A stretch of 63,046 nucleotides of DNA. Source: Mucilaginibacter sp. GTDB lineage: Bacteria > Bacteroidota > Bacteroidia > Sphingobacteriales > Sphingobacteriaceae. The DNA lies in contig JAQBOY010000005.1 of the NCBI GenBank assembly GCA_028287805.1, positions 1 to 63,046 of the forward strand. Direction: 5' to 3'. Each line of letters opens with the position of its first letter. Within the stretch, counting starts at the first letter, position 1. A program made the position numbers and the translations under genes. Shown one piece after another: positions 517-62,726 of the stretch. The notes beneath the pieces were generated by a model, which did not search any database, had not been told where the DNA came from, and was given only the letters and a program-made list of their open reading frames with translations.

Positions 517-606
517 TAAATCAAACTGTTATAAATAGGGTTCTGGTACAGCTGATACCACAAACGTTCGCAAGTTGCTAAACACTTGCGAACGTTTTTC
601 ATTTAT
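517..606 (+). repeat. att-like junction J1 (core ACCACAA 557-563); 557-606 identical to 27991-28040
   Basis: 50-bp perfect direct repeat read from sequence; TAAATC box 40 nt and TACAG 10 nt upstream of the core, as in the other junctions. Confidence 0.9.
562..600 (+). terminator. Intrinsic terminator-like hairpin
   Basis: 14-bp perfect stem AAACGTTCGCAAGT/ACTTGCGAACGTTT, 8-nt loop, T-rich tail. Confidence 0.8.
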
Positions 607-652
607 TTTTATACCGCCCTTAAAAAAGCAAAGACACTCTGTGTGGATAAAT

Positions 653-706
653 ACCCTTTCGGGCTGGGCTATCCTCTGCGAAGGATGCCGCTTTTATCCC
701 TAATGC
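653..706. repeat. Degenerate REP-like intergenic repeat of a type recalled from Flavobacteriia/Sphingobacteriia
   Basis: GC-rich CCCTTTCGGGCTGGGCTATCC...GGATGCCGCTTTTATCCCTAATGC in AT-rich context; family recognition from memory only. Confidence 0.35.
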
Positions 707-749
707 AATATTGGGTATGCTTAAAATTTGATGATGTCAAGCGCGACTA

Positions 750-1512
750 TTATACCCTGCCATGTCTTATTTTGGTAAACCCTGGGTTGCCCTGAAGCGC
801 AAATACATGATCTCTGCCAATGGCGTAACCGAAATTAATGTTATTAAAACCGAGCATAAAGACGGCACCATAACTATATGAAGCAGATTGCCTGTCCGGT
901 TTTAAGCCGGGTGCATTTGTCGCCTCTTTTAAGGACACAGCGCCAAGACCGCCAAGTAGCCCGGTACTAAAGGAAAACTATTTGAGATTTTTACCTAAAA
1001 ACTTCTTTTTAGGATCGAAAATATTATAATTGAATTTGTAAAGTGCTGAAAATCCAACATTGTACCAGTCTCCACGTTTGCCGGATTTACACTCCCATCA
1101 CCAATTTGTTGCCTGAACTTTAACGGTATGGATAAGGCTTGTATACCAAAATTTCCGTCTCCGTATTTAATGGGGTGGTTTTCAACGGAATCATCAGGAA
1201 AATAATAGTTGCCGCCAAAAGCCAGTCTGTGTTGGTCTGGCCCACCTTCAAGTGGTTTGGCTTTCCCTTTATTTAACTTGTTGGTATCTGCTATTTTGAG
1301 CGTATAATAGTCTGTTTTATCAGTTATCGTTGCCAAAAAGGGAGCATTGACAGTATCAAGCTCAATAGAATAATTTTTCGTGGTGTTGTCGTTCGGGCTT
1401 CTTGGTATTTTTTTATAAATCGCAAGTATATTGTTTTTAAAGATTGTTTTTTGCTGGCCGCAACCGAATAAAAACAGCGCAAAAATAGTGCGTATAATGG
1501 GATGAATTTCAT
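750..1512 (-). pseudogene. Frameshifted hypothetical (outer-membrane-like) protein
   Basis: Three consecutive short minus-strand ORFs (1324-1512, 995-1336, 750-938) that read as one protein (signal-like N-terminus, ALSIPLKFRQ, amphipathic INFGYAIGRD). Confidence 0.5.
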
Positions 1513-1515
1513 AAT

Positions 1516-1983
1516 CTATTTGGTTGGCATATCTAAAATTAATTCTCCGTTACCTGTATTAAACTGTGCCTTTCCGGTATTTATAATGGCAAGGATTCCT
1601 GCGAGCTCGTCGGCAGAAACTTCATCAGCATGAAATTCTTTTCCATTGGAAAGTTCAAGCCATAGTTCTGCAGTATTTTTATAATTGAATTTGACGTAAA
1701 GGGTATCAATCTTAAAAACTGTAGTTGTGCTTTTTATGGCGTGGCTAGCTTTAGGCACATATTCAAATGCTGACATCGCAGACGTATCAACAAACTTGAC
1801 TTTCTTTTTAAAAAGGAATAAAAAAATGATAATTACTATTGCTAAACAGAATAGTACGATTAATGTATCTTTAATGCGTTTAATGAAATAAGGTGTACCT
1901 CCGCTGGCACAAATTGAAAAATTGGAGAATATATTAATAGGTGTGGAAACTGTAGCCTGAACCATCATATGAATAACATCCAA
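1516..1983 (-). CDS. Hypothetical membrane-anchored protein (start uncertain)
   Basis: ORF with one hydrophobic segment followed by KKK; TTG start doubtful. Confidence 0.45.
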   Translation of the reverse strand: MDVIHMMVQATVSTPINIFSNFSICASGGTPYFIKRIKDTLIVLFCLAIVIIIFLFLFKKKVKFVDTSAMSAFEYVPKASHAIKSTTTVFKIDTLYVKFNYKNTAELWLELSNGKEFHADEVSADELAGILAIINTGKAQFNTGNGELILDMPTK

Positions 1984-2225
1984 AGCCGTTTCCGATTTAT
2001 AAAATTATAACCAGCCCTAGGAAGCGAGAGGCATCCACCTGTTTCAAGCTTTCTTTACACGCCCGCGAGATACCGCATCGTATAATTGACTTAATTCGCA
2101 AAAAACCTCACTCGCACGCGTGCGCTGGCTTCACTTAGAGCACTTTTTGCCGCGCCTGTTAAAGCTCCTGATGTATTTGGCGGAATGGACGGATTAACAT
2201 ATCCGGCTACAATTTGATTATAGTT

Positions 2226-3152
2226 TTACCCTTCCCCAAGATTTCTTCTGGATTCCGGCATAATTGATTTTATTGCCTCTGCTACTTCTATTGGCAGGTC
2301 AGACTCCAGAATATCAGCGCCCACTATAAACGTTTCACGGTAGTGAGCAGCCCGTTCAGCCGGGTCCTTTAATTTATCATATGATGGTGCTGCCGAAATC
2401 ATACACATAACGCCTTTAGCATGAAGCATATCTAACAGTTCTTTATTCTTCGGTTTATTTGTAGGGCCTATATAGGCTATCATATTCTTCCATGGCACTC
2501 CTACTTTTTCATACGTATAAAAAGCCTCTTTTGTTAGTACAAAGGCCGACATCATATTGTCAGGATTGTTGTCGTAATAAAATCGGGCTTGTTGGGCATT
2601 GTGCACCGTTAACATTACCATATCATTTTTGCACTCTTTTAATATTTGGGCGGTCATTTCAAGCGGGACATCCTTATGGTCAAGGTTTAATACCGTTTTA
2701 CCTTTGCTCCATAAAATAACTTCTTTAAGCGTTGGTATCTTATAATCGGTAACATTTCCCTGCGGATCTTTTAACCTGAATTTTTGCAGTTCGGCAAAAG
2801 TATAATCCGATACCTTACCCTTACCAGTTGTTGTCCGGTCAAGTGTTTCATCATGCATTAAAACAACTACGCTATCCCTGGTTAACCTGGGATCGATCTC
2901 AAAAAAAGCGGGGGTATGTTTAAGGGTGTTTTCAAACGTGGCTACGCAATTTTCCGGGTAACCGTTAGTTGTACCGCCACGATGACCACTGATCACGGGC
3001 ATATTTTTTCCGGTATGTTTAAAATATCCCTGAAACTCCTTTATGTTTTTAAATTTAAGAGCATTTATTTCTGTCTGCGCTTTTGAAATTTTTGCGGTTA
3101 TGACTAATAGTAAGCACAATAAAAATATGGGATTAGACGATGGCCTCTTCAT
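2226..3152 (-). CDS. Glycerophosphodiester phosphodiesterase (GDPD) family protein, secreted
   Basis: GHRG...PEN, EID...HD..LDRTT motifs; signal peptide. Confidence 0.9.
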   Translation of the reverse strand: MKRPSSNPIFLLCLLLVITAKISKAQTEINALKFKNIKEFQGYFKHTGKNMPVISGHRGGTTNGYPENCVATFENTLKHTPAFFEIDPRLTRDSVVVLMHDETLDRTTTGKGKVSDYTFAELQKFRLKDPQGNVTDYKIPTLKEVILWSKGKTVLNLDHKDVPLEMTAQILKECKNDMVMLTVHNAQQARFYYDNNPDNMMSAFVLTKEAFYTYEKVGVPWKNMIAYIGPTNKPKNKELLDMLHAKGVMCMISAAPSYDKLKDPAERAAHYRETFIVGADILESDLPIEVAEAIKSIMPESRRNLGEG

Positions 3153-3167
3153 TTTTTTGATATTAAT

Positions 3168-3764
3168 TTATGCGTTTAGTTTTTTTAAGGTGATTTCGCC
3201 AGTGTCATCCAGCTCAAAAAAAGTAATAGCGGCGTTTTCCTGGAATATTCTCCGGTAGTTTTTTAATTCCATACCCAATTTATACGCCATATACAGGCGG
3301 TTTATACCATTGTGCCCCACCACTACTATGGTTTCGTTTGCATGCTTTTGCAGCATTTCATTAAAAAAAGCATTTACCCTTTCAATAATTTCCATCCCTG
3401 TTTCACCAGTACCCCCGGCCTTTGTATTTCCAGGGTCGTGTATCCATGCGTCCCACAAAGATTTATCTTCGTCAATAAACTCTTCTTTTGTTTTACCCTC
3501 CCAATTACCAAAATACACTTCGGTGATGCGTTCGTCTGTTTGTACCTGCTGGCTCCCGGTCGCTATTTGGGCTGTGAAACATGCCCTGCGTAACGGAGAG
3601 GAATAAACCGCGTCAAATTTTTCGTCCTTTAACTGATGATACACTTTTACAGCTTGTTTCACGCCTTTACTGGTCAGGCTGGCATCGGTTCTGCCACAAT
3701 AGCGGTTACCATCGGCATTATATGGGGTTTCCCCATGCCTTAACAAAAAAACACTAAGCATCAA
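3168..3764 (-). CDS. Histidine phosphatase (phosphoglycerate mutase-like) family protein
   Basis: LRHGET, SSPL.RA, VVGH motifs. Confidence 0.9.
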   Translation of the reverse strand: MMLSVFLLRHGETPYNADGNRYCGRTDASLTSKGVKQAVKVYHQLKDEKFDAVYSSPLRRACFTAQIATGSQQVQTDERITEVYFGNWEGKTKEEFIDEDKSLWDAWIHDPGNTKAGGTGETGMEIIERVNAFFNEMLQKHANETIVVVGHNGINRLYMAYKLGMELKNYRRIFQENAAITFFELDDTGEITLKKLNA

Positions 3765-6656: not shown

Positions 6657-6662
6657 CTCAGA

Positions 6663-7643: not shown

Positions 7644-7684
7644 ATTTGTTATTTGTATTTTAATAGTAAATTTTGCAAGGGGTT

Positions 7685-8968: not shown

Positions 8969-9081
8969 TTCTTTTTATTTTAATTGTTAATTGGTTTAAA
9001 GCTTTAAAGAATGGCAATGGGCATTTCCATGCCTGTTAGGTTTATTTTAGTTAAAAAAGCTTAACACTTCAGATTAAGCTT

Positions 9082-9143
9082 AAACAAATAAAGCATTTAA
9101 AACCAAATAAAACAAAATTTAATTAAAAAAAATGTTTTGAAAT
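9082..9143. promoter_or_regulatory. Putative DeoR operator (~10-bp-period AAACAAAATA-like repeats)
   Basis: AAATAAAACAAAAT at 9105-9118 recurs at 24505-24518 and partly at 26295-26304. Confidence 0.45.
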
Positions 9144-9217
9144 ATAAAATAACTACAAATTAAAAGCCATGGTGACAATATTTTTCTCTACTTTTAGCTC
9201 ATATTTCTAAAATAAAA

Positions 9218-9982: not shown

Positions 9983-9992
9983 TTACCTTTAG

Positions 9993-10025
9993 AGAAAAAG
10001 ATGGGCTTTACAACCGTCTTTTTCT
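9993..10025. terminator. Bidirectional terminator between convergent genes
   Basis: AGAAAAAGATGG/CCGTCTTTTTCT stem. Confidence 0.65.
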
Positions 10026-10063
10026 TCATTCTTTTTTCTGAGTTTGTTTGTTAATTGCGGATG

Positions 10064-12916: not shown

Positions 12917-12957
12917 GATTTAGGTTTTTACAACATTTAATGATAGAGACTTTCAGA

Positions 12958-16051: not shown

Positions 16052-18007
16052 TCATGGGAAAAAGAATTTACGGATGTGATATGGCAGGTTTAATAGTTTA
16101 TCGCCGCTACCGCCATAAACAGTGGTTGTAACTGCTCCGTTATTATACATGTACAGTGTTTGGTTTGACGGGCGATAAATAGCCGGATGTGTTATTCCAT
16201 CGCCAAAATAATCTCCAGGAGCGGGGATATCGCCAGAGGCCGGTGTTAAGACCGTTACATTGTTAACGCCCGTATTTGCGCTATCCAAATGCCAGATACC
16301 TGTGGCAGGGTCAAAAATGGCAACATCTGTTTTACCATCACCGTTATAGTCTCCTGGTACGGGTATATATCCGGCATCACCATAATGTTTATTGATGATC
16401 TGCCCCCTTACATTCCACATTCCTGTGGATATCTTATAATAAGCAACGTCTACCTTACCATCGCCGTCATAATCACCCGGTACGGGTATAACTCCGGCTT
16501 CACCATAATCATAACCAGTTTGGTCTTTTATATACCAGTGGTAAGGACTTGTTGGCCTAAACATAGCTATATCGGCTTTTCCATCACCATTATAATCTCC
16601 CGGCACGGGTATATCACCTGCCTGTCCGTAAACGGCAGTTACTTCGGTCGCCAGTTTAATATACCAGGTAAAATTAGACGGCCGCCAAATGGCCAGATCA
16701 GTTTTACCATCGCCATCATAATCCATAGAAACCGGCAGATCTCCCTGCGTAGCGCTGCCATAGGTCACGTTTGACATACCCTGAACCTTCCATACGCCCA
16801 AATTAAAGAAGGAAAGCTCAGATAAACCATCCCTGTCAAAATCAGAAGTACGGGTAGTAGTTTGCTCATGGAATAGCGGCCTTGTAAACTGGCTGTCGCT
16901 ATCAGTTTCAAACTGTGAAATATAGGGTGAAAAAGTTTTTACACTGATCAGGTCTTTAGCAGGAGAAAACTTCATTAAACGCATATAACCATTTCCTCCC
17001 AGCGTTCTGAACTGGTAATCTGAAACAAATGTTTTTATGGTTCTTCCACTATAGGTATCCTGCCTGTAGCCTTCGCCATTTACATGCCCACCCAAAAAGA
17101 GGAACACATTGCGGCAGGATTTTATCTTGTCATAAATTTCCTGGGTTTGGGCCGAGTATGTTGACGGTGTTGCGGGGCTGCCTGCATGGTGTGTCACAAT
17201 AATAGCTTTCCTGCCAGCATAGGTTCCCGTTAAAAGACCTTTCATCCAGTTATTCATATTATCCCTTTCGGTAACAGAGGCAGCGTCTGTGCGGTCATCA
17301 TATTCAATATAGATAGCGATAAAATCAAGGCCACCGGCGCTGAACAGATCATAATGGCTATCATTATTGCTGCCATAATGCCCACCGTAAAAAGGCATTC
17401 CGCTAAACCGGGGTACAGCGAAACCAAAATATTGGTTATAATAGGTAGTGGTGCTGAAACAGCTTCCGCGGTCATTAGTATTAGTTCCGCCACCAACGGG
17501 GTCGTGATTGCCCTGATCATGATTACCTACCGCCATTCCATACGGGATACCCGCGGCATCAAGCTTGGCCATGGCAGTATCGGCCCGCCGCCATTGTACC
17601 GGGCTCCGTGTCGGGTCATCACCATTTTCAGATATATCCCCCAGGTGAACAACGTAAACAATATTTGAATCAATTTGATGATTTACGATCCAATTGGTTT
17701 GAGCATAAAACATCCCGATAACGGAATTATACGTAGTGCTTTGTCCCGTATAGGTTTGCGTATCAGGGATAACAGCAATCATAAAATCCGCGCTCGATAC
17801 GGCATTGGTAGCTAATTCTGAAGGAGAAGAAGTGCTGGCTTCTACGCCGTTTTGTGCAATTACCAGCTTTTTACAGCCCGAAAAAACAATATACGGGATT
17901 AAAACCAAAGCCATAACTCTTTGTAAAGAAGTATAACTTCTACTACTGGATTGGCTATTTCTTTTTTTAATAACACAAGGATCTCTAAATTGTAAAATTG
18001 GTTTCAT
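16052..18007 (-). CDS. Calcineurin-like metallophosphoesterase fused to FG-GAP/VCBS repeats, probable lipoprotein
   Basis: PDTQ, HLGD, GNHD, GH motifs; repeated PGDY(D/N)GDGKxD units; FSGC lipobox-like (true start may be downstream). Confidence 0.8.
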   Translation of the reverse strand: MKPILQFRDPCVIKKRNSQSSSRSYTSLQRVMALVLIPYIVFSGCKKLVIAQNGVEASTSSPSELATNAVSSADFMIAVIPDTQTYTGQSTTYNSVIGMFYAQTNWIVNHQIDSNIVYVVHLGDISENGDDPTRSPVQWRRADTAMAKLDAAGIPYGMAVGNHDQGNHDPVGGGTNTNDRGSCFSTTTYYNQYFGFAVPRFSGMPFYGGHYGSNNDSHYDLFSAGGLDFIAIYIEYDDRTDAASVTERDNMNNWMKGLLTGTYAGRKAIIVTHHAGSPATPSTYSAQTQEIYDKIKSCRNVFLFLGGHVNGEGYRQDTYSGRTIKTFVSDYQFRTLGGNGYMRLMKFSPAKDLISVKTFSPYISQFETDSDSQFTRPLFHEQTTTRTSDFDRDGLSELSFFNLGVWKVQGMSNVTYGSATQGDLPVSMDYDGDGKTDLAIWRPSNFTWYIKLATEVTAVYGQAGDIPVPGDYNGDGKADIAMFRPTSPYHWYIKDQTGYDYGEAGVIPVPGDYDGDGKVDVAYYKISTGMWNVRGQIINKHYGDAGYIPVPGDYNGDGKTDVAIFDPATGIWHLDSANTGVNNVTVLTPASGDIPAPGDYFGDGITHPAIYRPSNQTLYMYNNGAVTTTVYGGSGDKLLNLPYHIRKFFFP

Positions 18008-27921: not shown

Positions 27922-28040
27922 AATTATAAATCCAAATCTGCGATTAAACGCAAATCGTACAGGAAATAGTTCGAGATTTGTACAGTAGCCACCACAAACG
28001 TTCGCAAGTTGCTAAACACTTGCGAACGTTTTTCATTTAT
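27922..28040 (+). repeat. att-like junction J2 (core ACCACAA 27991-27997): upstream half matches J3, downstream half matches J1
   Basis: 27961-27998 identical to 56852-56889 (38 bp, similarity extends to ~77 bp); 27991-28040 identical to 557-606. Confidence 0.92.
27996..28034 (+). terminator. Intrinsic terminator-like hairpin (copy of 562-600)
   Basis: Same 14-bp perfect stem. Confidence 0.8.
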
Positions 28041-28586
28041 AATGCTTAAGCTCCTTTGGTTACGTTATTCCTCGCGTTATAGCTGAAACATCAGAGTTTA
28101 ACTTCCCCAAAACATTTTTTGTTGTTATGATCGTAATGGAATTTTCCATATAATTATCTATTATGAGATAATGCCTTGTGCCATGGTACTCACTTTTGAT
28201 GCCTTGTTCGAGCCAGGTGGGCGCACAAAAGCGGTTTTAAAGCCTCATCGAAACTGTCTAAATTCCTGATTTAGAGTGTTTTTTCATTTGTTCTCCCCTC
28301 AACGTCAAGAAAGCCAAAGTCCTCGTTACCTATCCGACTACCTGTTTTTAATTTTTAATTTAGGTAACACAAACCTATTCAATGAATTGACATACAGTAA
28401 TTACAGGGGTAAAAGTTTGTTTAAATCAGTCTTTTTAGACTATTCTGTGTTACCTTTTTGTACATTCCGTTGATACTCCTTGAATCATACTGTTGCAGAA
28501 TTAACATTTATTTATTATGATCACGGATAGAAGTATCTAACGAAAAGTATTAATTTCGGCAAAGTTTTTAATAAAAATTATAAAGT

Positions 28587-42504: not shown

Positions 42505-43179
42505 ATGAAAAAATTCTTCCTGATTTATTTGTCTTGCTTTTTTGTAACTATCGCAAGTGCACAAAGTGTAAAAATTGACAGCAGCTACAACAATTCTTAT
42601 TATCAACAAAGAATGGAACTCTTTGCGAATTTACCTTCACCAAAAAAATCAATTGTGTTTTTGGGAAATAGCATAACTGAAAGAGGAATGTGGAACGAGC
42701 TAATCCCCGGAAAGGTGATTATGAATAGAGGAATTGGGGGAGATAATACATTTGGTGTGTTAGCAAGGCTAGACCCGATAGTTAAAACCAAACCCCAAAA
42801 GGTATTTCTTTTAATCGGTATTAACGATTTAGGAAGAGGGTTGCCCGTAGAAGTAATTGCGGCGAATTATAAAAAGATCATACAGAAAGTCATAACAGGC
42901 TCTCCTAAAACCACTTTGTATATTCAAAGTGTATTACCCATGAATGATGATATACTTAAGGCCGCGTATCTTAAAAATAAGATGGCTTTAATAGTACAGC
43001 TGAATCAGGAAATTATAAAGCTTGCTGCAGCGTATAAATTGACTTACATCAACCTTCATGAAATATTCGACAATGGAAAAGGTCAACTAAAAGCGGAACT
43101 GACCATAGACGGAATTCACCTTAACCCGGCTGCCTATGTGTTGTGGGTTGATTACCTGGAGAAGAAAAAGTGTTTATGA
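42505..43179 (+). CDS. SGNH/GDSL esterase (O-acetylesterase-like)
   Basis: FLGNSIT, NRGIGGD, GIND, DGIH; signal peptide from ATG 42505. Confidence 0.92.
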   Translation: MKKFFLIYLSCFFVTIASAQSVKIDSSYNNSYYQQRMELFANLPSPKKSIVFLGNSITERGMWNELIPGKVIMNRGIGGDNTFGVLARLDPIVKTKPQKVFLLIGINDLGRGLPVEVIAANYKKIIQKVITGSPKTTLYIQSVLPMNDDILKAAYLKNKMALIVQLNQEIIKLAAAYKLTYINLHEIFDNGKGQLKAELTIDGIHLNPAAYVLWVDYLEKKKCL

Positions 43180-47581: not shown

Positions 47582-48322
47582 ATGGAAAAGTATTTTAAAG
47601 CAAAAAGGATATATGAAATAAATATAATGGGGATAAATAAGACTTTACTTTTCTGTTTATTATGGATGTTTCCATTTATTATCAAGGGTCAGTCGCTAAA
47701 ACATGAAGCGGCGGTTGATTCTAATTATCATAACTATCTTTATGATAATCGTTTGGCTTATTTTAACGGTTTGCCTGCTGCAAAGGGCGGAATAGTTTTC
47801 CTTGGCAATAGTATAACACATTGGGGAGATTGGGCAGAGCTGTTTAAAAATGCTAAAGTAAGGAACCGTGGTATTGCTGGCGATATCAGTTTTGGTGTGC
47901 TGGCAAGGTTAGATGAAATAACGGTATCAAATCCTGAAAAAATATTTATAATGATTGGAGTAAATGATATAGGTCGAAAGATCCCGACATCTTATACTAT
48001 CAGAAATTATGAGAAAATCTTACTTCAGTTAAAAAACCGAAGCAAAAGAACCCGCATTTTTATGCAAAGTATTCTGCCTATTAATGATAGCCTGATTAAC
48101 AGAAAGTATTATACAGGGACGAACACAGAAATAAGAAACCTGAATGAGGAGTTGAAGAAACTTGCTTTAAAACATACTATTACTTATATCGAATTGCACA
48201 GTCTTTTTACAGATGCTTCGGGTCAAATGTTGGCAAAATATACGTATGACGGAATTCACCTAACCGCTGAAGGTTATCTGTTATGGATAAATTACCTGAA
48301 GAAAAAGAGGTATTGTAATTAG
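47582..48322 (+). CDS. SGNH/GDSL esterase
   Basis: FLGNSIT, NRGIAGD, GVND, DGIH. Confidence 0.92.
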   Translation: MEKYFKAKRIYEINIMGINKTLLFCLLWMFPFIIKGQSLKHEAAVDSNYHNYLYDNRLAYFNGLPAAKGGIVFLGNSITHWGDWAELFKNAKVRNRGIAGDISFGVLARLDEITVSNPEKIFIMIGVNDIGRKIPTSYTIRNYEKILLQLKNRSKRTRIFMQSILPINDSLINRKYYTGTNTEIRNLNEELKKLALKHTITYIELHSLFTDASGQMLAKYTYDGIHLTAEGYLLWINYLKKKRYCN

Positions 48323-49840: not shown

Positions 49841-49880
49841 ATTCTTACTTGATTAAATATTTATTTATCTTCGCAGTATT

Positions 49881-52355
49881 ATGAAGTTTAGGCATTCAGT
49901 TACTTTCATATTGTTTCTAGTGAGCGGGTTGTTTGCTCCCAAATTGTCAGCCCAAACAATCAACACAGATCTGCTGATTATTGGTGGGGGAGCAAGTGGT
50001 ACTACTGCTGCTATACAAGCCTCAAGGATGGGGGTGAAAACACTGATTGTTGAAGAAACAGAATGGCTCGGAGGGATGCTTACATCTGGAGGAGTATCTG
50101 CAATTGATGGCAATCACAACATGCCTTCCGGTATATGGGGAGAGTTTAGGCAGAAATTATATGACTATTACGGAGGCCCTAAAGCAGTTGAAACGGGTTG
50201 GGTAAGCAATACGTTGTTCGAGCCCTCAGTAGGTAATAAAATACTTAAGGAGATGGCCCAAAATGATAGTCTATTGATCTTGTATAAAACTGTTTGGAAA
50301 GAAGTAAAAAAGAAAGATGGCCTTTGGAAGGTGACAGTAATTACAGGCGGTAAAAAGCGTGTAATAAATGCAAAACTCTTAATAGATGCTACAGAACTTG
50401 GAGATGTAATGGCTATTGCAGGCGTACTTTATTCTATTGGTATGGATAGCCGTAATGATACAGGGGAGGAGTTTGCTCCAGAAAAAGCTAATAATATTAT
50501 ACAGGATCTTACCTATGTGATTACCTTAACGGATTTCGGAAAGGGGAGTGAGAAAACTATTCCAAAACCAGAAGGATATAACTCAGCTGAATTTAAATGC
50601 AGTTGCGATATTGCAGATCCGGCTGGCAATGGCAGTCCAGATAATAATTGCTATAAAATGTTGCAGTATGCCCGTTTACCAGGCAATAAATACATGATTA
50701 ACTGGCCAAAATGCGGTAATGATTTTTATCTAAATATTATTGAAAATACGCCTATAGAAAGAACGGCTGCTTTGAAAGAGGCCAAATTGCATACCTTAAG
50801 GTTTCTTTATTACCTGCAAACAGAACTAGGTTTTAAAAATCTAGGGATAGCGGATGGTGAATATCCTACTTCAGATAATTTACCGATGTATCCTTATTAC
50901 CGTGAATCTCGCAGGGTGAAGGGTTTGGTAAATTTAACGCTAAATCATGTTGCTAAACCTTATGAGCAAAAGGAGGCATTTTACCGTACAGGAATTGCAG
51001 TAGGTGATTATCCGATAGACCATCATCATTTAAAAAATGCAACAGCACCTGCCATAGATTTCGTGAAGATAAAGGTACCGTCTTATAATATCCCGTTAGG
51101 CTCATTAATACCTGCAGGCATTAGCGATCTTATTGTAGCTGAAAAGAGTATTAGTGTAAGCAATATTGTGAATGGGACTACTCGTTTGCAGCCCGTGGTA
51201 CTTTCTATTGGACAGGCAGCAGGTGCTTTAGCTGCTGTAGCAATTAAAAATAATATTCAGCCTTCAGAGGTAAATATTAGGGAAGTGCAGCAGGCCTTAT
51301 TAGATGCTCATGGATACCTAATGCCTTTTATTGATATTAAACCTGATGATAAAGACTTTCAACCCATACAAAGAATAGGGGCTACCGGTATTTTAAAAGG
51401 AACAGGTATTCCTTTTAAATGGGCTAATCAAACATGGTTTTATCCAGACCGGGTAATAAGTGAGTATGAATTGTTAACAGAATTTAAAAGTTATTACCCA
51501 CAACTCAATACTATACCGGCTTCGGGTAGTCCTTTAACGCTTCAGTTCCTTTCAGAAATATTATCAGCGATTAACAGCAATATAAGCTTCAGCAGTATAG
51601 CCGCAAACTGGGCAAAACTAAACCAAAATGGAGTGGCTAACCCCGACTTGGTTCTTAACAGGAGGCAGGTAGCGGTATTGATTGACCATTATTTAAAACC
51701 CTTCAATAGCCAGATAGATTTTAAAGGTGCCTTAAAGGAAAATAGGGTTGTAGATAGTAGTTACGCCAATGGATATTATCTGAAACAACGGGCGGCATTA
51801 AAAAATCTTCCCGCTAGGAAAAACCAAATTGTTTTTCTGGGAAATAGCATTACTGAGCAAGGCCAATGGCAGAAATTGCTACCCCAAAAACAGGTATTGA
51901 ACATGGGGATCAGTGGGGATGTATCGTTTGGCATTCTTTCAAGATTGGATGAAGTACTTGCTTTTAAGCCTTCCAAAATATTTCTAATGATGGGAATTAA
52001 TGATTTAAAAAGAGGTATTCCGGCAGAGCTAATTACAGCTAATTATATCAAATTTATAACGCGTATTAAAAGTGCTTCGCCCGGAACCAAAGTTTTTATC
52101 CAGAGTGTTCTGCCACTAAATATTTCTATCCTGCCTGCATCTTATTATAAATTAAGTAATGAAAAGGTAAATGCATTAAATGAACAATTAAAGGCCTTGT
52201 GCAAGCAATATAAGCTTACCTATGTTAATCTGCATGAGGTATTTGCTGACGGAAATGATGAACTGAAAAAAGAACTTAGCATCGACGGCTTACACCTGAA
52301 ACCCGCTGCCTATGTTTTATGGGTGGATTACCTGAAAAAGATAAATGCTTTATAA
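49881..52355 (+). CDS. FAD-dependent oxidoreductase (PF12831-like) fused to C-terminal GDSL esterase
   Basis: IIGGGASG..AA, LGG..TSGGV, IDATE.GD, YYRESRR, G.YPID.H, GQAAG; then FLGNSIT...GIND...DGLH. Confidence 0.88.
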   Translation: MKFRHSVTFILFLVSGLFAPKLSAQTINTDLLIIGGGASGTTAAIQASRMGVKTLIVEETEWLGGMLTSGGVSAIDGNHNMPSGIWGEFRQKLYDYYGGPKAVETGWVSNTLFEPSVGNKILKEMAQNDSLLILYKTVWKEVKKKDGLWKVTVITGGKKRVINAKLLIDATELGDVMAIAGVLYSIGMDSRNDTGEEFAPEKANNIIQDLTYVITLTDFGKGSEKTIPKPEGYNSAEFKCSCDIADPAGNGSPDNNCYKMLQYARLPGNKYMINWPKCGNDFYLNIIENTPIERTAALKEAKLHTLRFLYYLQTELGFKNLGIADGEYPTSDNLPMYPYYRESRRVKGLVNLTLNHVAKPYEQKEAFYRTGIAVGDYPIDHHHLKNATAPAIDFVKIKVPSYNIPLGSLIPAGISDLIVAEKSISVSNIVNGTTRLQPVVLSIGQAAGALAAVAIKNNIQPSEVNIREVQQALLDAHGYLMPFIDIKPDDKDFQPIQRIGATGILKGTGIPFKWANQTWFYPDRVISEYELLTEFKSYYPQLNTIPASGSPLTLQFLSEILSAINSNISFSSIAANWAKLNQNGVANPDLVLNRRQVAVLIDHYLKPFNSQIDFKGALKENRVVDSSYANGYYLKQRAALKNLPARKNQIVFLGNSITEQGQWQKLLPQKQVLNMGISGDVSFGILSRLDEVLAFKPSKIFLMMGINDLKRGIPAELITANYIKFITRIKSASPGTKVFIQSVLPLNISILPASYYKLSNEKVNALNEQLKALCKQYKLTYVNLHEVFADGNDELKKELSIDGLHLKPAAYVLWVDYLKKINAL

Positions 52356-52472
52356 ACACAAAGGGGACATGAAAATAAATTGCAAGAAGCATGATACATT
52401 GCTCCAAACTATTATCAGCAAATATAAAGGGGACATGGAAGTCAATACTAAATATTTATTACACTATACTTC

Positions 52473-53405: not shown

Positions 53406-53500
53406 AAAAAATAAGATGAGACCTCCCTGAGCCACCGCTCTAAAACAGCAATAAATAAGTCTTGAGAAGCTTCATCTCCATTAAAAAAACAACTAAGTAG

Positions 53501-54703: not shown

Positions 54704-54773
54704 AGAGCAAGATCCGTCAAGTATTGATGCAATCTTTATAAAAATCAATTTTCTGTTAATTATTTAAACATAT

Positions 54774-56699: not shown

Positions 56700-56811
56700 T
56701 ACAGTTTGGTGCACCTGTAAGCTGTGCTTACTACTCTTAACAAGGGCAGAACAATTTGGCTTTCACTTTACAAATGCTAACGTGTGAATTATTTTTATTT
56801 TGTCTGATTGT

Positions 56812-56889
56812 AATTATAATGCCAAATCAGCGATTAAACGTAAATCAGACAAGGAAATAGTTCGAGATTTGTACAGTAGCCACCACAAA
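56812..56889 (+). repeat. att-like junction J3 (core ACCACAA 56882-56888)
   Basis: Near-identical to 27922-27998, last 38 bp identical; diverges immediately after the core. Confidence 0.92.
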
Positions 56890-56944
56890 ATTGACCACAT
56901 GGTCTTTTTATTCGCAAACTTTATTGCAGAATAAAACTACCTAA

Positions 56945-56977
56945 AAAAGGCCTTCAGGTAGTTTCTGAAGGCCTTTT
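56945..56977. terminator. Bidirectional terminator
   Basis: 13-bp perfect stem AAAAGGCCTTCAG/CTGAAGGCCTTTT. Confidence 0.8.
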
Positions 56978-57234
56978 GATTTCCTGATTATTTAATTGAT
57001 CCAATAAATGTCAAGTTTATTAAAAATGCCCATGTGGTTTTTTTGTAGTAATTAAATAATTGTACTACCTTAACTAAGTATTATTTCGTATTTAAGCCGG
57101 TTTGCAGGAACATTTAGCGTAGTTTGGGGGGATGCCAGAGGAACGTCTTGCTGCTTTATTCATCCGGGCGGCATGGTTCACTGACAAACGTCCTGTACCA
57201 AATGCTCCGACTGATTACCAGTACCCGGTCTTTG

Positions 57235-58671
57235 TCAACTGGATTTATACTTCTTCATCAGCATCGCCAATTTCTCTAAGTACCAATCTATTTTAGTAGT
57301 CCATATCAGGCAATAATTGATCCGGATATAATTCTTATATTGAGACGAAGTGGAAAATATCTGACCAGGGAATATGCCGATACCTTCCTGAAGTGCCCGG
57401 CGGTGCAGTTCCGAGGCATTAATAGTTGCCGGGAGTTCCAACCAGATACTGAATCCTCCTTTAGGCGCGGCGATTCTAACCTCATCCGGAAAATGACGAT
57501 TGATCGAACCCATATAACGGGCCAGGTTTTGTTGTAAGGCCGTTTTCATATTTTTCACATGCGCATTGTACAATCCTGTTTCTAAATACCGGCCAATTGC
57601 ATCCTGTAAAATACCATTGGTGAAAAAATTGGAAATATATTTCAGCCGTTTGATCTGCTCATGATAGCGCCCGCCGGAAACCCAGCCGATTCGGAACCCC
57701 GAACCTAATGTTTTAGAAAAGGAGGTACAATACAGCACATTGTTAGTCGTATCATAGGCTTTGGCCGGCAGCGGACGGGGATGGCTAAAACTCAGGTCAC
57801 CTAAAGCATCGTCCTCGATAAGCGGAATATGGTGCTGACTTAACAATTCTACCAGGCGAATGATATTTTCCCTCGGCATCGCACAGCCTATTGGCGAATT
57901 GCATATCGTGGTGAGTACACAGGCAGCAACTTGATGCTGTTCAATGGCCAATGCTAATTGGGCAAGGTCCAGGCCGGTATCCGGGTGCAGCGTAATTTCA
58001 AGGGCCAGTAGGTTCAGGCGCTCCAGGATTTGAAGAATACCATAAGGAGTAGGTGATTCCACTAAAATGATATCGCCAGGTTTGGCAACAGCATCGAGGC
58101 AAAGATTAATAGCTTCTATACAGCCATTGGTTACCAATACCTCATCTGTGGCTAAACCAGTTCCCCAATCAAAAGTTTGCCGCACAATTTGTTTAACCAG
58201 CCGGGGATGGCCTTCGATCAGCGGATATTGAAAGCTGTCGCTCGTTGGATCTTTCAGGGTGTCACGCAGGGCCTTACTCATGCGGGAAATAGGCAACAGC
58301 TCATTAACCGGCGCAACAATTGCAAAATTAATCGCGCCGAATTCCCTCATGTTCTTCAACATATTGGCGATCATGGTATTTAAGGTTACCTGGCTGGGAA
58401 GCGGAATATATTTTCCAGCCGGTTTTTGGATCAGGGTGTTTTTTGCAGCAGCGTTAACAAAGTAACCGGACCTGGGGCGGGAAATGATCAACCCTTTGGC
58501 TTCTAACAAATGATAGGCCTGAAATACCGTTGCCAGGCTGACCTGAAGGTCTTTACTCACCTGCCGGACAGAAGGTATACGGTCACCGGCATTAAGGTTC
58601 AGGTTTTTAATGATGCTTGCCACCTTGGCAGCAACTTCCTCATAACGAAACAATGCATGTTCATTTTTCAT
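57235..58671 (-). CDS. MocR-type (GntR HTH + PLP aminotransferase-like) regulator
   Basis: GDRIPSVR...T..QAY..LE..G....PRSGYFV; ESP, IEDD, SFSKTL..GFRIGW; ATG at 58671 preferred. Confidence 0.93.
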   Translation of the reverse strand: MKNEHALFRYEEVAAKVASIIKNLNLNAGDRIPSVRQVSKDLQVSLATVFQAYHLLEAKGLIISRPRSGYFVNAAAKNTLIQKPAGKYIPLPSQVTLNTMIANMLKNMREFGAINFAIVAPVNELLPISRMSKALRDTLKDPTSDSFQYPLIEGHPRLVKQIVRQTFDWGTGLATDEVLVTNGCIEAINLCLDAVAKPGDIILVESPTPYGILQILERLNLLALEITLHPDTGLDLAQLALAIEQHQVAACVLTTICNSPIGCAMPRENIIRLVELLSQHHIPLIEDDALGDLSFSHPRPLPAKAYDTTNNVLYCTSFSKTLGSGFRIGWVSGGRYHEQIKRLKYISNFFTNGILQDAIGRYLETGLYNAHVKNMKTALQQNLARYMGSINRHFPDEVRIAAPKGGFSIWLELPATINASELHRRALQEGIGIFPGQIFSTSSQYKNYIRINYCLIWTTKIDWYLEKLAMLMKKYKSS

Positions 58672-58690
58672 AACCGAAACAAAAGTAAGT

Positions 58691-58754
58691 AACTGATCTG
58701 GTTTTTTAATTAAAAACTGCATCTGTTTTAGCGTACAGGTATCATCTAATTTTG
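58691..58754. promoter_or_regulatory. Putative MocR direct-repeat operator and -7 element
   Basis: AACTGATCTG (58691) and AACTGCATCTG (58715) direct repeats; TAATTTTG at 58747-58754. Confidence 0.55.
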
Positions 58755-58768
58755 TGCAGGAAATAAAC

Positions 58769-59242
58769 ATGAAAAATCAATTGACTTTATTGCACTTTGA
58801 TAACCCGGAAGATCTGCTTGCGGGTATTGATGCGCTTCAACAGCATCACATCGTTATTCAGGAAGTCTATTCTGCAAAACCAGTCCCTGGCATGGAAGCC
58901 AAACTAAACAGGCAGCAATTGCGGCTCGGCGAGATGGTCCTCAGATTTGGCTGTCTGGGCGGTATGGTATTCGTCTCTTTGATTTTTTACTTAATGCAGC
59001 CGGAGGTGAATTGGAAATCAGCGCTGCTGAACACCGTTTTGTTATTAGTTACCTTGTTCCTTGCAGGCTGTTTGACTCCGGTTAAAGCACCCAGGTGTTT
59101 TAACCTGCAACCGGGCGACAGGCGTTACCTGGCCGTGGTTGATACCCAGCGTATACCAGTTGAAGAATCTATCGCTCATCTGTTTCAATATGCCGGCGCA
59201 GTTGATTTCAATTCAACTATAAAAAATATCGTGATCTCTTAA
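58769..59242 (+). CDS. ActD-like (DUF3341) membrane protein, shortened
   Basis: FD.PEDLL.....L......I.EVYS..PV.G.E..L N-terminus, two TM helices; ATG at 58769. Confidence 0.65.
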   Translation: MKNQLTLLHFDNPEDLLAGIDALQQHHIVIQEVYSAKPVPGMEAKLNRQQLRLGEMVLRFGCLGGMVFVSLIFYLMQPEVNWKSALLNTVLLLVTLFLAGCLTPVKAPRCFNLQPGDRRYLAVVDTQRIPVEESIAHLFQYAGAVDFNSTIKNIVIS

Positions 59243-59243
59243 T

Positions 59244-60518
59244 ATGAATAGCATGACCACCTCCAATTTTGATGAACGGTTTATCTTTAAAAGTAAAGCC
59301 AAAGCCTGGTGCTTGGCCATGATCGCGCTCGGGATAACAGGCATTGCCTATGGCTTTTTATCCGGCAGCGCTGAGCGAACTTTTGCCAATTTATTGCTGA
59401 TGGGTTATTACCTGGTTACCGTTTGCCTGTTCGGTGTCTGCTTTTGTGCTATCGAATATATTTCGCAATCCGGTTGGTCGGTTTCCATACTCCGCATCCC
59501 GCAGGTATTTGCCCGGATATTACCTGTCGCGGCACTGGTTCTGCTGGCTATTATAAGTGCCGGTATATTTACTACTCATCCCGGTAAAAATGAAGGCGGT
59601 ATTACTACTGTTTTACCCTATCTGTATAAACTTTGGGCGTTAAAAGGAGTTACTACCCCGCATCATATCAACTATGACGCAGTTATTGCCGGTAAATCCG
59701 GTTTTTTAAACATCCGATTCTTTTTTATCCGCCTGGTGGCCTTTCTTACCTTTTATAGTATTGCAGGCTGGCTACTGGTGAAATATTCGTTCAATGAAGA
59801 CCAGACTGGCGGTATGGCTAATTACAAAAAAAGCTTTAGCCTGTCTGCGCTGTTTTTAGTGGTGTTTTTCTTTACCGTTCCGCTATTTGTTTTTGATACC
59901 ATCATGTCTTTAGACGCCCATTGGTTCTCTACCTTGTTTGGCTGGTATAATCTTTCAGGGTTTTTAGTTAGCGGTTTCACGGTTACGGCGCTAACCGTTA
60001 TTTATTTACAAGAAGCAGGCTACCTGCCTTGGGTGACAAAAAACTACCTGCAAACCTTAGGGGTGCTGATATTTGGCTTTTCCATATTCTGGACCTACTT
60101 ATGGTTCGAGCAATTCCTGCTGATCTATTATTCCAACCTCCCGGAAGAAGCGGTTTACTTTTATAAAAGATGGGAACCCGAGTTTCAATTTTGGTTCTGG
60201 CTAAACCTAACGATCAATTTCTGTGTGCCGTTTTTTGTACTCATGTCGCGCGATGCTAAAATGAGGATAAGCGTAATGAAGGCAACCTGCATCCTGCTGA
60301 TCCTTGGGCACTGGCTGGACTATTGGCAAATGATCATACCCGGAACCACCAAGCCGAAAGCCAACTGGTATAATGAAATAGGTGTTATCGAGGGAGCCAC
60401 GTTTATCGGCTTTGCGGGTTTATTCGTCTATATGGTGCTTTATTCACTTAGCTGCCTCAAAACGCTGGCACCAAAAAATCATCCTTTTCTTCAAGAAAGT
60501 CTTCACCATCAAAATTAA
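59244..60518 (+). CDS. ActF-like (NrfD-fold) membrane protein
   Basis: GWS...LRIP, FD.IMSLDAHWFSTLFGWY, FSIFWTYLWF.QFLLIYYSNLPEE, HPFLQESLHH. Confidence 0.8.
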   Translation: MNSMTTSNFDERFIFKSKAKAWCLAMIALGITGIAYGFLSGSAERTFANLLLMGYYLVTVCLFGVCFCAIEYISQSGWSVSILRIPQVFARILPVAALVLLAIISAGIFTTHPGKNEGGITTVLPYLYKLWALKGVTTPHHINYDAVIAGKSGFLNIRFFFIRLVAFLTFYSIAGWLLVKYSFNEDQTGGMANYKKSFSLSALFLVVFFFTVPLFVFDTIMSLDAHWFSTLFGWYNLSGFLVSGFTVTALTVIYLQEAGYLPWVTKNYLQTLGVLIFGFSIFWTYLWFEQFLLIYYSNLPEEAVYFYKRWEPEFQFWFWLNLTINFCVPFFVLMSRDAKMRISVMKATCILLILGHWLDYWQMIIPGTTKPKANWYNEIGVIEGATFIGFAGLFVYMVLYSLSCLKTLAPKNHPFLQESLHHQN

Positions 60519-60523
60519 AAATC

Positions 60524-60724
60524 ATGATACTCTTACAAATTGGCTTAGTCCTGACGATCTTCTCAATTATTAACTGCTTCCAGTTCGCTTCGGCTATCCT
60601 GGCCAAACAGATTGGACTGGACTTTTGGCGTTGGTTCTGGATCTCACTTTTTCTACCGATCATCTCTATGATCATACTGCTGTTTCTTTGGGATACCAAT
60701 GAGCAGCCGGTGGCGCATAGTTAA
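60524..60724 (+). CDS. Small two-TM hypothetical membrane protein
   Basis: AK..G..FW.WF.ISLFLP pattern; operonic spacing. Confidence 0.65.
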   Translation: MILLQIGLVLTIFSIINCFQFASAILAKQIGLDFWRWFWISLFLPIISMIILLFLWDTNEQPVAHS

Positions 60725-60840
60725 TGGAACCTGTTTGTTTTTTGAAGAATTTGCAAAAGTGCGAGTTGTCTTCAAAATTCAATAGATATGCAACGCCTGT
60801 AACTGACAGGCAACCAAGACAAAATTAATAATCCATAACA

Positions 60841-61374
60841 ATGAAAACATTTAAAGTACCAACCCGCGATGAAGTTAGCCCTGCCAATCAGGCCATATTT
60901 GACACGCTTAAAAAGAAGTTAGGCAAGGTTCCTAACAGTTATGCCTTCATGGCAAGTTCAGAAACCGGATTAGCCACTTACCTGGCATTGTCCAACGCGG
61001 AAAGTTCGCTCAGCATGAAAGAGAAAGAAGTGATCAATCTTACCGTAAGTGAAATAAACGGCTGTCATTATTGCACAAGCGCGCATACGGTTATTGGTAA
61101 ACTAAACGGTTTTACAGATGAACAAATTCTGGAAATCCGTCGTGGGGGCGCAAGTTTTGACGCGAAACTTGATGCATTAGCCCGGTTTGTGAAAGAAGTA
61201 ACCAATAATAAAGGTAATGCCAGCCAGGAAGCTATCGATAATTTTTTTGCATCAGGGTACACCAATGAAGGCCTTGTTGACACGCTTTTAATTGCCTCTG
61301 AAAGAACTTTCAGTAATTATTTAAATGCTATAGTGAATGTTCCGATTGATTTCCCGGTAGCTCCTGAAATTTAA
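60841..61374 (+). CDS. AhpD/carboxymuconolactone decarboxylase family (peroxidase-related)
   Basis: E.I.L.VSEINGCHYC..AH. Confidence 0.9.
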   Translation: MKTFKVPTRDEVSPANQAIFDTLKKKLGKVPNSYAFMASSETGLATYLALSNAESSLSMKEKEVINLTVSEINGCHYCTSAHTVIGKLNGFTDEQILEIRRGGASFDAKLDALARFVKEVTNNKGNASQEAIDNFFASGYTNEGLVDTLLIASERTFSNYLNAIVNVPIDFPVAPEI

Positions 61375-61416
61375 GGCCTTTTGTTTTTAACTTTTGCATA
61401 ACATAAATGAAGAATT

Positions 61417-61866
61417 ATGAAAAAAGTAATTAAACATCGTTTCGATGTATGGCAGGAAGAGCCCCTATACTGGGATCTGATGTCCGGAATGGACAAACGC
61501 CTGTATGAATCAACTATACCCAAAAGCCTGATAGATATTATCAAGGTCAGGGTTTCACAAATCAACAAATGTGCCTTTTGCATCGACTATCACACCGAAG
61601 ATGCTTTGAAGCATGGAGAGACGTCCCGTCGCATATTTGCTTTATCCGCCTGGCAGGAAAGCCCCTTGTTTACCGACATCGAGCGAATGGTTCTTGAGGT
61701 GGTTGAGGAAGTGACTTATATTTTTAATCATGGTGTTTCAGATGAGGCCTATGAAAAGCTGCTATCGCACTTTACGAAAAAAGAGATAGCGGATATCATT
61801 GTCTGCATTTGCCACATGAATTTCTTAAACCGCATAGGCATTTCGACCAAAACAGCAGCCTATTAA
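61417..61866 (+). CDS. AhpD/CMD family protein
   Basis: RVSQINKCAFCIDYH, W.ES..FT..ER, N..NR. Confidence 0.9.
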   Translation: MKKVIKHRFDVWQEEPLYWDLMSGMDKRLYESTIPKSLIDIIKVRVSQINKCAFCIDYHTEDALKHGETSRRIFALSAWQESPLFTDIERMVLEVVEEVTYIFNHGVSDEAYEKLLSHFTKKEIADIIVCICHMNFLNRIGISTKTAAY

Positions 61867-61896
61867 ATTTAGTTTAACCATAAAAAAATTAATCAA

Positions 61897-62544
61897 ATGA
61901 CAATTTCAGGTAAAACAATAGCCGGCATAAAAATCCCCGACAGTGCAATGGCCGGCCAGGCAACAGAGTTATTGCGCGAACATGGCAGCGAGCTTTTGTA
62001 CAACCATACCTTACGGGTCTTTCTTTTCGCGGCGCTAAACGGTCAGCAAAACAACCTTAGGTTTGATGCGGAACTCTTGTATGTCAGCACCATGTTTCAC
62101 GACCTGGGCCTGACAGCGCACTACCGTAGTGATGATAAACGGTTCGAAATTGATGGTGCAAACGCAGCCCGCGATTTTCTGCGTGGTTATGGTGTTTCGC
62201 CACAATCGCTGCAATTGGTCTGGGATACGATTGCGCTGCATACCTCACCGGGTATCGCAGAATACAAAGAACCCGAAGTAGCTTTACTTAATTATGGTGC
62301 GGCATTAGATGTTATCGGCAAGGGTTATGATCAACTGTCGAACACCATCCGCGAAGAAATTGTCCAGCAATTTCCGCGCAATGGGTTAAAGGAAAACATG
62401 ATCAACACTTTTTTTGATGGCTTTAAACACAAACCACATACCACCTATGGCAGCATCAATGCCGATATTTGTGCGTGTATGATCCCGAACTATCAAAGTA
62501 AAAATTATTGCGATTTGATCTTACATTCGCCGTGGTCGGAGTAA
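61897..62544 (+). CDS. HD-domain metalloprotein
   Basis: NH..RV, FHDLGL, RFE.DGA.AA..FL, W..IALHT. Confidence 0.88.
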   Translation: MTISGKTIAGIKIPDSAMAGQATELLREHGSELLYNHTLRVFLFAALNGQQNNLRFDAELLYVSTMFHDLGLTAHYRSDDKRFEIDGANAARDFLRGYGVSPQSLQLVWDTIALHTSPGIAEYKEPEVALLNYGAALDVIGKGYDQLSNTIREEIVQQFPRNGLKENMINTFFDGFKHKPHTTYGSINADICACMIPNYQSKNYCDLILHSPWSE

Positions 62545-62620
62545 TATTTTAACGCTATGTCAAATAAAAAGCCATAAACAAAAATGGCGAGTTCAGAATT
62601 TGAACCATTTTCAATTCAGA

Positions 62621-62687
62621 TCTAAATCTGCCAATCGTTTTAAATCATAAAAGAAATGGTTTGTTATAACTAAAGTCTGCACCACAA
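62621..62687 (+). repeat. Degenerate att-like junction J4 (core ACCACAA 62681-62687)
   Basis: Ungapped in-register similarity to J2: TCTAAATCTG/TCCAAATCTG, TAAATCATAA/CAAATCGTAC, AAGAAATGGT/AGGAAATAGT, TAAAGT/TACAGT, CACCACAA. Confidence 0.7.
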
Positions 62688-62696
62688 GTAGAAATT

Positions 62697-62726
62697 GCCT
62701 CTTAGTGTAAGCTAAGAGGTTTTTTT
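62697..62726 (+). terminator. Intrinsic terminator after J4
   Basis: GCCTCTTAG/CTAAGAGGT stem followed by a T run. Confidence 0.8.

Follow-up and report, generated by a model that had tools for sequence, protein, structure and literature searches.

Contig JAQBOY010000005.1 of a Mucilaginibacter sp. assembly (GCA_028287805.1) was analyzed over its whole length of 63,046 nucleotides, referred to here as the window (contig C486 of assembly G000). It carries three consecutive blocks of DNA (A, B, and C), which lack a recombinase gene and are delimited by four junctions (J1-J4) that resemble attachment sites. The sequence arms that lead into J2, J3, and J4 derive, with little room for doubt, from the 3′-end of a large serine recombinase (LSR) gene. 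Blocks A-C are probably recombinase-less cargo with cut-off LSR tails, stacked behind tRNA-Phe and moved as units by an LSR supplied by another element.

Results

Junctions and LSR-derived Arms

The assembly is 85% complete and comprises 500 contigs (4.39 Mb). The sequence ACCACAA lies on the plus strand of the window at exactly 557, 27991, 56882, and 62681, and the spacing from core to core gives 27,434 bp for block A, 28,891 bp for block B, and 5,799 bp for block C. From the core onward, exactly 50 bp are identical between J1 and J2, and J2 and J3 share 90.9% identity across a 77-bp stretch that terminates at the core (E = 2e-23). An initial annotation of this DNA had described the four junctions, both shared stretches, and the block sizes in the same terms, and its estimate of ∼130 bp of cis-acting end sequence also stands. 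It had read the 7-bp core as the overlap of a tyrosine recombinase, an interpretation that is not retained. The 7-mer by itself occurs at chance level (507 copies in 4.39 Mb, both strands), core bases 6-7 differ among junctions, and the conserved core is ACCAC (∼5 bp) in Phe-type arrays and CAC alone (3 bp) across tRNA targets. The 7-bp core is partly a coincidence, CAC being all that different tRNA-like tails have in common.

An arm of ∼75 bp precedes J2, J3, and J4 and, in the antisense direction, encodes the C-terminal tail of an LSR, VVATVQISNYFLSDLRLIADLDL, followed by a stop codon. In the LSR frame, arms read either VVATVQISNYFLSDLRLIADLDL or VVQTLxITxHFFYDLKRLADLDLN, each with its stop, and conservation halts at the stop codon. 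The right arm of A (27924-27995, minus strand) encodes the intact tail VVATVQISNYFLYDLRLIADLDL, with the stop at 27924-27926, and is an attP-like half. The right arm of B (56814-56886, minus strand) is frameshifted by a one-base insertion near 56851 that is missing from contigs of the sequencing runs X2 (soil metagenome) and X3. The right arm of C (62611-62685, minus strand) is intact and represents a second tail subtype, VVQTLVITNHFFYDLKRLADLDLN, which also terminates an element encoding an LSR, MobB, and MobC in a relative (G125 unit 1). When the window was searched with LSRs by tblastn, the sole match was a 40-residue tail spanning J2. The J2 frame matched the protein P0002 (tblastn, 60% over ∼40 residues, E = 1e-6), and the peptide across J2 retrieved three proteins, of which P0002 and P0003 end in exactly that tail. 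P0002 is annotated as a site-specific DNA recombinase, contains PF07508, and is 37% identical to the G125 LSR.

For codon analysis, 12 of 67 arms were dropped as out of frame, leaving 44 type-I and 11 type-II arms. Variation at codon positions 1, 2, and 3 of the type-I arms was 0.133, 0.060, and 0.207, respectively, and synonymous variant codons numbered 31 in the LSR frame compared with 13-20 in the other five frames. The synonymous count of the type-II arms was likewise highest in the LSR frame (15 versus 2-11). The distance from the motif GTTCGA to CAC is 18 nucleotides in 36 of the 39 arms with this hexamer (22 arms lack the exact hexamer), whereas it is 13 nucleotides in 29 of 30 tRNAs. 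The arm copy is thus set 5 bp farther out than its tRNA counterpart, which matches the attP/attB shift of serine integrases, and GTTCGA is presumably bound by the zinc domain of the enzyme. Downstream of the core, the motif CAAG at +10 to +13 is common to J1, J2, and LSR left ends and is absent from J3 and J4. Folding predictions in search of attC-like hairpins returned 0 predicted pairs for 51 arms.

No recombinase, transposase, or relaxase was identified in the window by Pfam analysis of 41 of the 57 listed open reading frames (ORFs; at least 90 residues, with overlapping shadow frames excluded), and tblastn with tyrosine-recombinase seeds gave no match, in agreement with the initial annotation. 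The window contains no tRNA gene. The tRNA-like, attB-like half of J1 (549-563, plus strand) comprises 15 bp equal to the 3′-end of tRNA-Phe(GAA) of the same genome, plus two bases. A 14-mer from J1 occurs in the assembly only at J1 and at the tRNA-Phe gene on contig C59, whose terminal 15 bp are the same as J1. Thus, the proposal that the junctions are of att type and sit at the 3′-end of a gene is upheld, with tRNA-Phe as the target. The description of the junctions needs one correction, in that the left side of J1 is a different type of end from that of J2-J4.

The left ends are heterogeneous. That of block A is a terminator hairpin (562-606, plus strand) identical to the left end of B; its antisense reading, NEKRSQVFSNLRTFVV, is likely a relic of LSR coding sequence. 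The J2 core and block B left end (27991-28040, plus strand) carry one open LSR-tail frame across the core and make up an attP-like joint. The J3 core and block C left end (56882-56977, plus strand) belong to a hairpin family that is not of LSR type, and the J4 core is followed by a terminator (62681-62733, plus strand) with 87% identity to that behind tRNA-Phe on C59. The ∼50 bp on the 3′ side of the core are often near-identical at successive junctions, as at J1/J2 of the window and in G030, G154, L082, L089, L101, and G164. Duplication of the terminator on insertion was considered and set aside: 50-bp sharing was observed in 9 of 58 adjacent versus 3 of 42 non-adjacent pairs of the same array (p = 0.23) and in 113 of 5,866 pairs across genomes, a pattern not distinguishable from lineage-specific pools. 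A generic scan for a core plus hairpin was too noisy for use, and the possibility of a Xer/dif-like site was discarded on visual inspection.

Distribution of the Arm

The initial annotation would have been undermined by repeat halves scattered throughout the genome as ordinary repeats. In assembly G000 the arm profile matched only J2, J3, J4, C480, C318 (partial), and C97 (weak), so the halves are not dispersed in this way. The match on C480 (9540-9615) is a fourth full arm and perhaps a further part of the same array, as perhaps are a degenerate tRNA-Phe 3′ duplicate with the C59-type terminator (C80, 363-406) and the partial arm on C318 (2610-2651), which is fused to a long palindrome. Window positions 62909-63046 match contig C16 of G111 at 93%, and contigs of runs X1 and X2 branch there; the DNA beyond J4 is probably repeated sequence.

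The J2/J3-type arm is present in 34 of 121 genomes of the genus, a count that takes in the window's own genome and the unpublished G002, which enters nothing else here but the LSR count given below. In most cases it follows a co-oriented tRNA-Phe gene, with as many as five arms per array, and arrays of the same kind are found in single-contig genomes. Units at tRNA-Val, -Lys, and -Arg likewise end in the arm. A scan with the exact pattern located it in 19 stretches from records named Mucilaginibacter, Pedobacter, or Bacteroidota, 4 of which were later excluded as probable duplicates; it was not found in viral contigs (two patterns), plasmids, or phages. On this distribution, a soil member of the Sphingobacteriaceae is the probable host.

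LSR Genes and Parent Elements in Relatives

LSR matches were obtained in 52 of 80 relatives (G002 counting once) and in 6 of 60 genomes sampled across the phylum. At all 29 LSR loci examined (of 30 fetched), the gene lies antisense at a 3′-end of tRNA or transfer-messenger RNA (tmRNA) type, with an ARAGORN gene call at 24, and most LSR ORFs read through the terminator hairpin into the tRNA. The target ends used by the family include Phe, Val, Lys, Met, Leu, His, Arg, and tmRNA. In several parent elements the LSR is accompanied by another LSR, by a relaxase, and by the coupling protein MobC, and the true LSR tail of 23-24 residues is located at the far end of the parent element. Both serine recombinases of G125 unit 1 contain PF00239, and the first contains PF07508 as well; the unit also encodes a relaxase and MobC and ends in a J4-type arm. 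Of the LSR regions, 4 of 15 selected by LSR also end in an arm.

Partly deleted LSRs were found in G108, L088, and G126d. A 1.8-kb unit consisting of two arms around a lone frameshifted LSR gene (L061/L168; G126:C1, ∼6643500-6645300) has the form of a minimal parent element. In the window's own assembly, an LSR C-terminal piece lies behind tRNA-Leu(taa) at the end of a contig that truncates it (G000:C89:1-300), and this piece may belong to an intact helper. A frameshifted LSR fragment is joined to an arm-like site on another contig (G000:C97:12923-13367).

Recombinase-less Units and Evidence for Movement

Units were defined as intervals from the left tRNA or junction to the right arm. The 43 units so obtained, chosen via arm hits and hence not an unbiased census, range from 669 to 24,134 bp (median of 2,771 bp; 13 under 1.8 kb). 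Pfam analysis of 107 + 95 ORFs (SusC-sized and a few others not being scanned) and tblastn over all of the DNA indicated that a recombinase is absent from 41 of the 43, consistent with the tandem accretion of recombinase-less units that had been suggested from the window itself. The two exceptions are G125 unit 1 (serine) and a unit with a tyrosine integrase and its own J1-type end. Other arm-ended cargo includes a cluster for type II secretion that also contains a reverse transcriptase (L031/L032 in G030; the 24-kb unit), a HigB-type toxin gene (L092), and a TIR-domain protein (L055).

A recombinase-less unit of 1.9 kb is shared by G126 and L093, a Pedobacter alluvionis record, with 95.3% identity over 1,909 bp. 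It follows an arm in G126 and a tmRNA-type tail in L093, the neighbors differ, and homology begins past the left core and stops at the right core. A 4-kb unit is 81.6% identical from end to end (4,069 bp) between L082, where it adjoins tRNA-Lys, and L086, where it adjoins an Arg-type tail. Two smaller units recur whole, at different rank in G040 and L101 and at the same rank in G001 and G014. For an esterase unit, the right end alone is common to Phe and Val arrays. Recombinase-less units thus do recur elsewhere with exact ends, and the G126/L093 case hints at movement as single units.

In contigs of soil run X2, the 3′ half of tRNA-Phe is joined to position 56882 (25 loose bases), i.e. directly onto block C, and also to position 27991 (18 loose bases). 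The breakpoints in relatives and soil contigs thus coincide with the cores, as the initial annotation had anticipated. Contig depth over A, B, and C was 42.5, 34-37, and 46.5 in X1, which may be the source sample, and 22.5, 17-29, and 55-63 in X2, with steps at the cores; block A is represented in X1 by one contig of 27,414 bp with a depth of 42.5. Together, these observations point to mobilization in trans as the likely fate of recombinase-less units of this type. That A and B themselves are still mobile is a more tentative proposition, rated at slightly below an even chance.

Cargo of the Blocks

Pfam assignments for block A (557-27990, minus strand) comprise SusC/SusD, two GH106 proteins, a metallophosphoesterase/FG-GAP protein, a sugar isomerase, two FGGY kinases, and MFS, DeoR, and GDPD proteins. 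Block A is a GH106/sugar-kinase polysaccharide utilization locus (PUL). FG-GAP repeats with a period of 123 bp lie within its metallophosphoesterase gene (16177-16744). Block B (27991-56881, plus strand) encodes an esterase, SusC/SusD, GHL10, NAGPA, GH20, GDSL esterases, an SSF transporter, ROK, GlcNAc 2-epimerase, and NagB/PIG-L proteins, and is a GH20/GlcNAc-type PUL. Three paralogous GDSL esterase domains lie at 43033-43177, 48248-48314, and 52209-52353. Block C (56882-62680, plus strand) is a small cluster that encodes a GntR/aminotransferase regulator, two CMD proteins, an HD protein, and two others. No recombinase was found in any of the three blocks.

Nested 200 bp inside block B is a relic (28193-28461, plus strand) that consists of the 3′ half of tRNA-Met(cat), ending at 28226, and the left end of a tyrosine-integrase island from which the integrase is gone. 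It is 84-86% identical to sequences in G188, G045, G167, and G177, and an integrase follows in three of these four. The initial annotation had overlooked this relic. Because other species have the block A PUL core and the block C genes with no arm nearby, and because B starts with the tRNA-Met island relic, the cargo is captured mosaic DNA rather than an old cassette lineage.

The Left Side of J1

Upstream of J1 lies the right end of another element (420-548, plus strand), marked by GATACC direct repeats and likely of tyrosine-integrase type. Positions 318-564 are 78% identical to the J1-type end of a tRNA-Phe array in G013. In one tyrosine-integrase family, a tail near-identical to the left side of J1 directly precedes the start, and all eight further loci of this family examined have a tRNA-type tail just 5′ of the start codon, the Phe ones matching J1. 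The left side of J1 is therefore assigned to another system; no integrase remnant was found in window positions 1-556. In a tyrosine-integrase family represented at L035:1560-2969 and L110-L117, the gene reads inward from a tail of tRNA-Phe, tRNA-Arg-like, or tmRNA-like type, its start lying roughly 70-110 bp inside, and the end type is that of J1. As a partner for J2-J4 a tyrosine integrase was rejected, the fit being restricted to the left side of J1.

Discussion

Proposed Mechanism

In the reading favored here, the attP site would lie inside the 3′-end of the LSR gene, and crossover would take place within the CAC that ends the tRNA. GTTCGA of the T-loop would serve as the zinc-domain motif in the attB position, with the arm copy, 5 bp further out, in the attP position. 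Integration would replace the tail of the enzyme by tRNA antisense sequence, and excision or insertion of a neighbor would restore it. The half downstream of the core may, with less certainty, be barely specified, such that every tRNA|x would be usable as attB and every arm|y would be usable as attP. Most speculatively, such loose downstream reading might allow tRNA|x and arm|y to recombine without a directionality factor, which would explain the mixed left ends. DNA between tRNA|x and arm|y, including PULs and island relics, could then become an excisable unit that would outlast loss of the LSR/mob module, and transfer between cells would require a helper conjugative element.

A broader version of this scheme is distinctly more tentative. 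It would make Sphingobacteriaceae the hosts of genome-wide serine-recombinase cassettes in which the T-loop side alone is read, a single 75-bp arm renders any DNA between itself and a tRNA 3′-end, up to a 29-kb PUL, excisable and mobile in trans to other tRNAs or tmRNA, and the tail swap is an on/off switch that replaces a directionality factor.

Weighing of the Explanations

Integrons provide the familiar case of arrays that grow at one site, and the initial annotation likened the window to one. The resemblance is a loose analogy only: the arm has no conserved hairpin, attC-like or otherwise, and no tyrosine recombinase (IntI) is encoded in the window. The ends are inherited from mobilizable elements that encode an LSR, which brings the system closer to the Dehalococcoides ssrA islands, SCC composites, and CIMEs discussed below. 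A tyrosine integrase acting in trans on the 7-bp overlap to build such an array is largely refuted for J2-J4 and is now very improbable, holding only to the left of J1. Islands of that type do use the same tRNA (G027, G151, G156, G013, and G004), and the left side of J1 matches the end beside one integrase family in its tRNA-Phe members. By contrast, the arm is LSR coding sequence with attP geometry, bases 6-7 of the supposed overlap vary so that CAC alone is common across targets, and the single arm-ended unit with an integrase inside has a separate end. Dispersed terminator or repetitive extragenic palindromic repeats, or an assembly artifact, have been refuted and retain hardly any probability. 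The downstream hairpin families do occur behind other tRNAs, and the metagenome-assembled genome to which the window belongs is fragmented; set against this, arms occupy few places in the assembly, the same arrays are seen in single-contig genomes, the blocks are covered by contigs of several runs, and short contigs of X1 and X2 span the J2 core.

A more serious competitor, although an unlikely one, is that the units are fixed relics of autonomous LSR elements, each inserted separately, that lost their recombinase and mob genes by deletion and now move only in cis with an intact element next to them or by homologous recombination, never in trans. Such a history is predicted by the model of cis-mobilizable elements (CIMEs) as set out in PMC5704250. 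The protein-coding signature of the arm must stem from autonomous parents, one third of tails are broken, partly deleted LSRs are known, and no circle was observed. It is harder to reconcile with a recombinase-less unit that is 95% identical in two species, with exact ends, at another target and among other neighbors. The tandem alleles of the soil contigs break exactly at cores, and the 41 units without a recombinase gene mostly retain terminal tails at most.

Several observations weigh against trans-mobilized LSR cargo. Circles, which the initial annotation had predicted, were not seen in contigs: no circle joint of block C was present in those of four runs, and A and B circles are not resolvable in contigs. 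The two X2 joins are single contigs with 18-25 loose bases, possibly from related species, and contig depth does not equal share of cells. Regarding the recombinase, no full LSR was found in the 85%-complete assembly, no DNA showed a type-I Phe arm on a unit that bears an LSR, this combination being represented by proteins P0002 and P0003 only, and 11 of the 15 LSR-selected regions had no arm within the 20-40 kb fetched. At the level of the sites, position 1 of the type-II arms (n = 11) is more variable (0.205) than position 3 (0.168); a mirror motif in the half downstream of the core reached 2.4 of 9 matches, which is chance level; most left ends, J3 and J4 included, mismatch the LSR consensus; and tails are intact in 41 of 62 cases and broken in 21, including J3, as would also be expected of decaying relics. 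The PUL core of A is also found in G151 and G160, and the block C genes in G174 and G152, with no arms nearby, and whole A, B, or C flanked by arms occurred in no relative searched (the interior of B not being searched genome-wide). Given that the core of A and the genes of C exist elsewhere without arms, blocks A, B, and C are themselves only candidates for mobility. Finally, C59 stops 217 bp beyond tRNA-Phe and the contigs are not joined, so the physical link between this tRNA and the window is presumed.

Comparison with Known Systems

Mobilization by an LSR in trans would offer soil Bacteroidota a concrete, testable way to acquire and shed entire PULs as units, the boundaries being exact to the base and the enzyme family being named. 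Such units would escape island finders that depend on an integrase within the island and on a long tRNA fragment, and the LSRs are candidate tools for large insertions at Bacteroidota tRNA sites.

CIMEs, as outlined in PMC5704250, have lost integration and transfer genes, keep attL and attR, are stacked at the end of a target gene, and are mobilized in cis. The window blocks likewise lack integration and transfer genes and retain att-type ends. The tRNA-targeting CIME examples given there use tyrosine integrases, whereas a serine recombinase is implicated here and whole units are found at other targets. Staphylococcal cassette chromosome (SCC/SCCmec) composites involve large serine recombinases, often two, at the 3′-end of a gene, with internal att sites and some att-bounded units without ccr (as described in PMC13739063). 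In that description, SCC targets rlmH and its att core, TATCATAA, is not within the recombinase gene; here, the target is a tRNA and the arm lies in the LSR gene. Membership of the Ccr family is contradicted by this target and by scores of 53-111 bits against the CcrA, CcrB, and CcrC NCBIfam models, far below the cut-offs of 700-900.

With regard to the enzyme, phage integrases of the LI/A118 type share the domain order PF00239 + PF07508 with the LSRs, and their zinc-domain motif is placed 5 bp nearer the crossover in attB than in attP (Rutherford 2013, PMC3783163). As presented in that work, those sites have the motif in both half-sites and directionality is strict; here, it is seen in the upstream half only, and attP × attL-like reactions are implied. 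Tycheposons, according to the preprint 10.1101/2020.12.28.424599, stack at tRNAs and push older elements outward by means of their own, mostly tyrosine, integrases. According to the Islander paper (PMC4383910, 2014), tRNA genes were not a known target of serine integrases, and the main text of an LSR survey (PMC10083194) does not contain the word tRNA. A Bacteroidota LSR-tail family is not described in the accessible portions of PMC12884075 and 10.1101/402107. No published description of this Bacteroidota family was found in the literature, supplements excluded, and earlier cataloguing is possible.

The closest known relatives, on the available account, are the ssrA islands of Dehalococcoides (McMurdie 2011, PMC3146451). 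These encode DsiB, a serine recombinase of ∼520-540 residues, on the reverse strand beside and overlapping attL, with no stop codon of its own; they also have a second serine recombinase (DsiA), form tandem islands, and include 15 without an integration module. Its authors had already proposed that a full-length DsiB gene exists only in the circular form or where it lies behind a neighbor. The same layout was found here: an LSR antisense to and overlapping the target 3′-end, in relatives though not in the window itself; a 3′ fragment, at the far end or in a neighbor, that completes the gene; and tandem units, some without the integration module, in the window as well as in relatives. The two systems are thus alike in the antisense LSR at attL, the second recombinase, the tandem islands at stable RNA genes, and the integrase-less members. 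As far as that account extends, the Dehalococcoides islands have a repeat of 20 bp and a six-gene module with ParB and Mom homologues, whereas those of Bacteroidota use many tRNA isotypes as well as tmRNA, have a repeat of ∼5 bp and parents with a relaxase and MobC, and show a conserved tail matched to LSR proteins and a 5-bp attP/attB shift relative to the T-loop. Most sampled units here are also without a recombinase, and their cargo includes whole PULs. The DsiB precedent limits the surprise of the architecture. In summary, the feature is real and its architecture is known; what is new is a set of tRNA-targeting, tail-splitting LSR islands of Bacteroidota whose recombinase-less units carry PULs.

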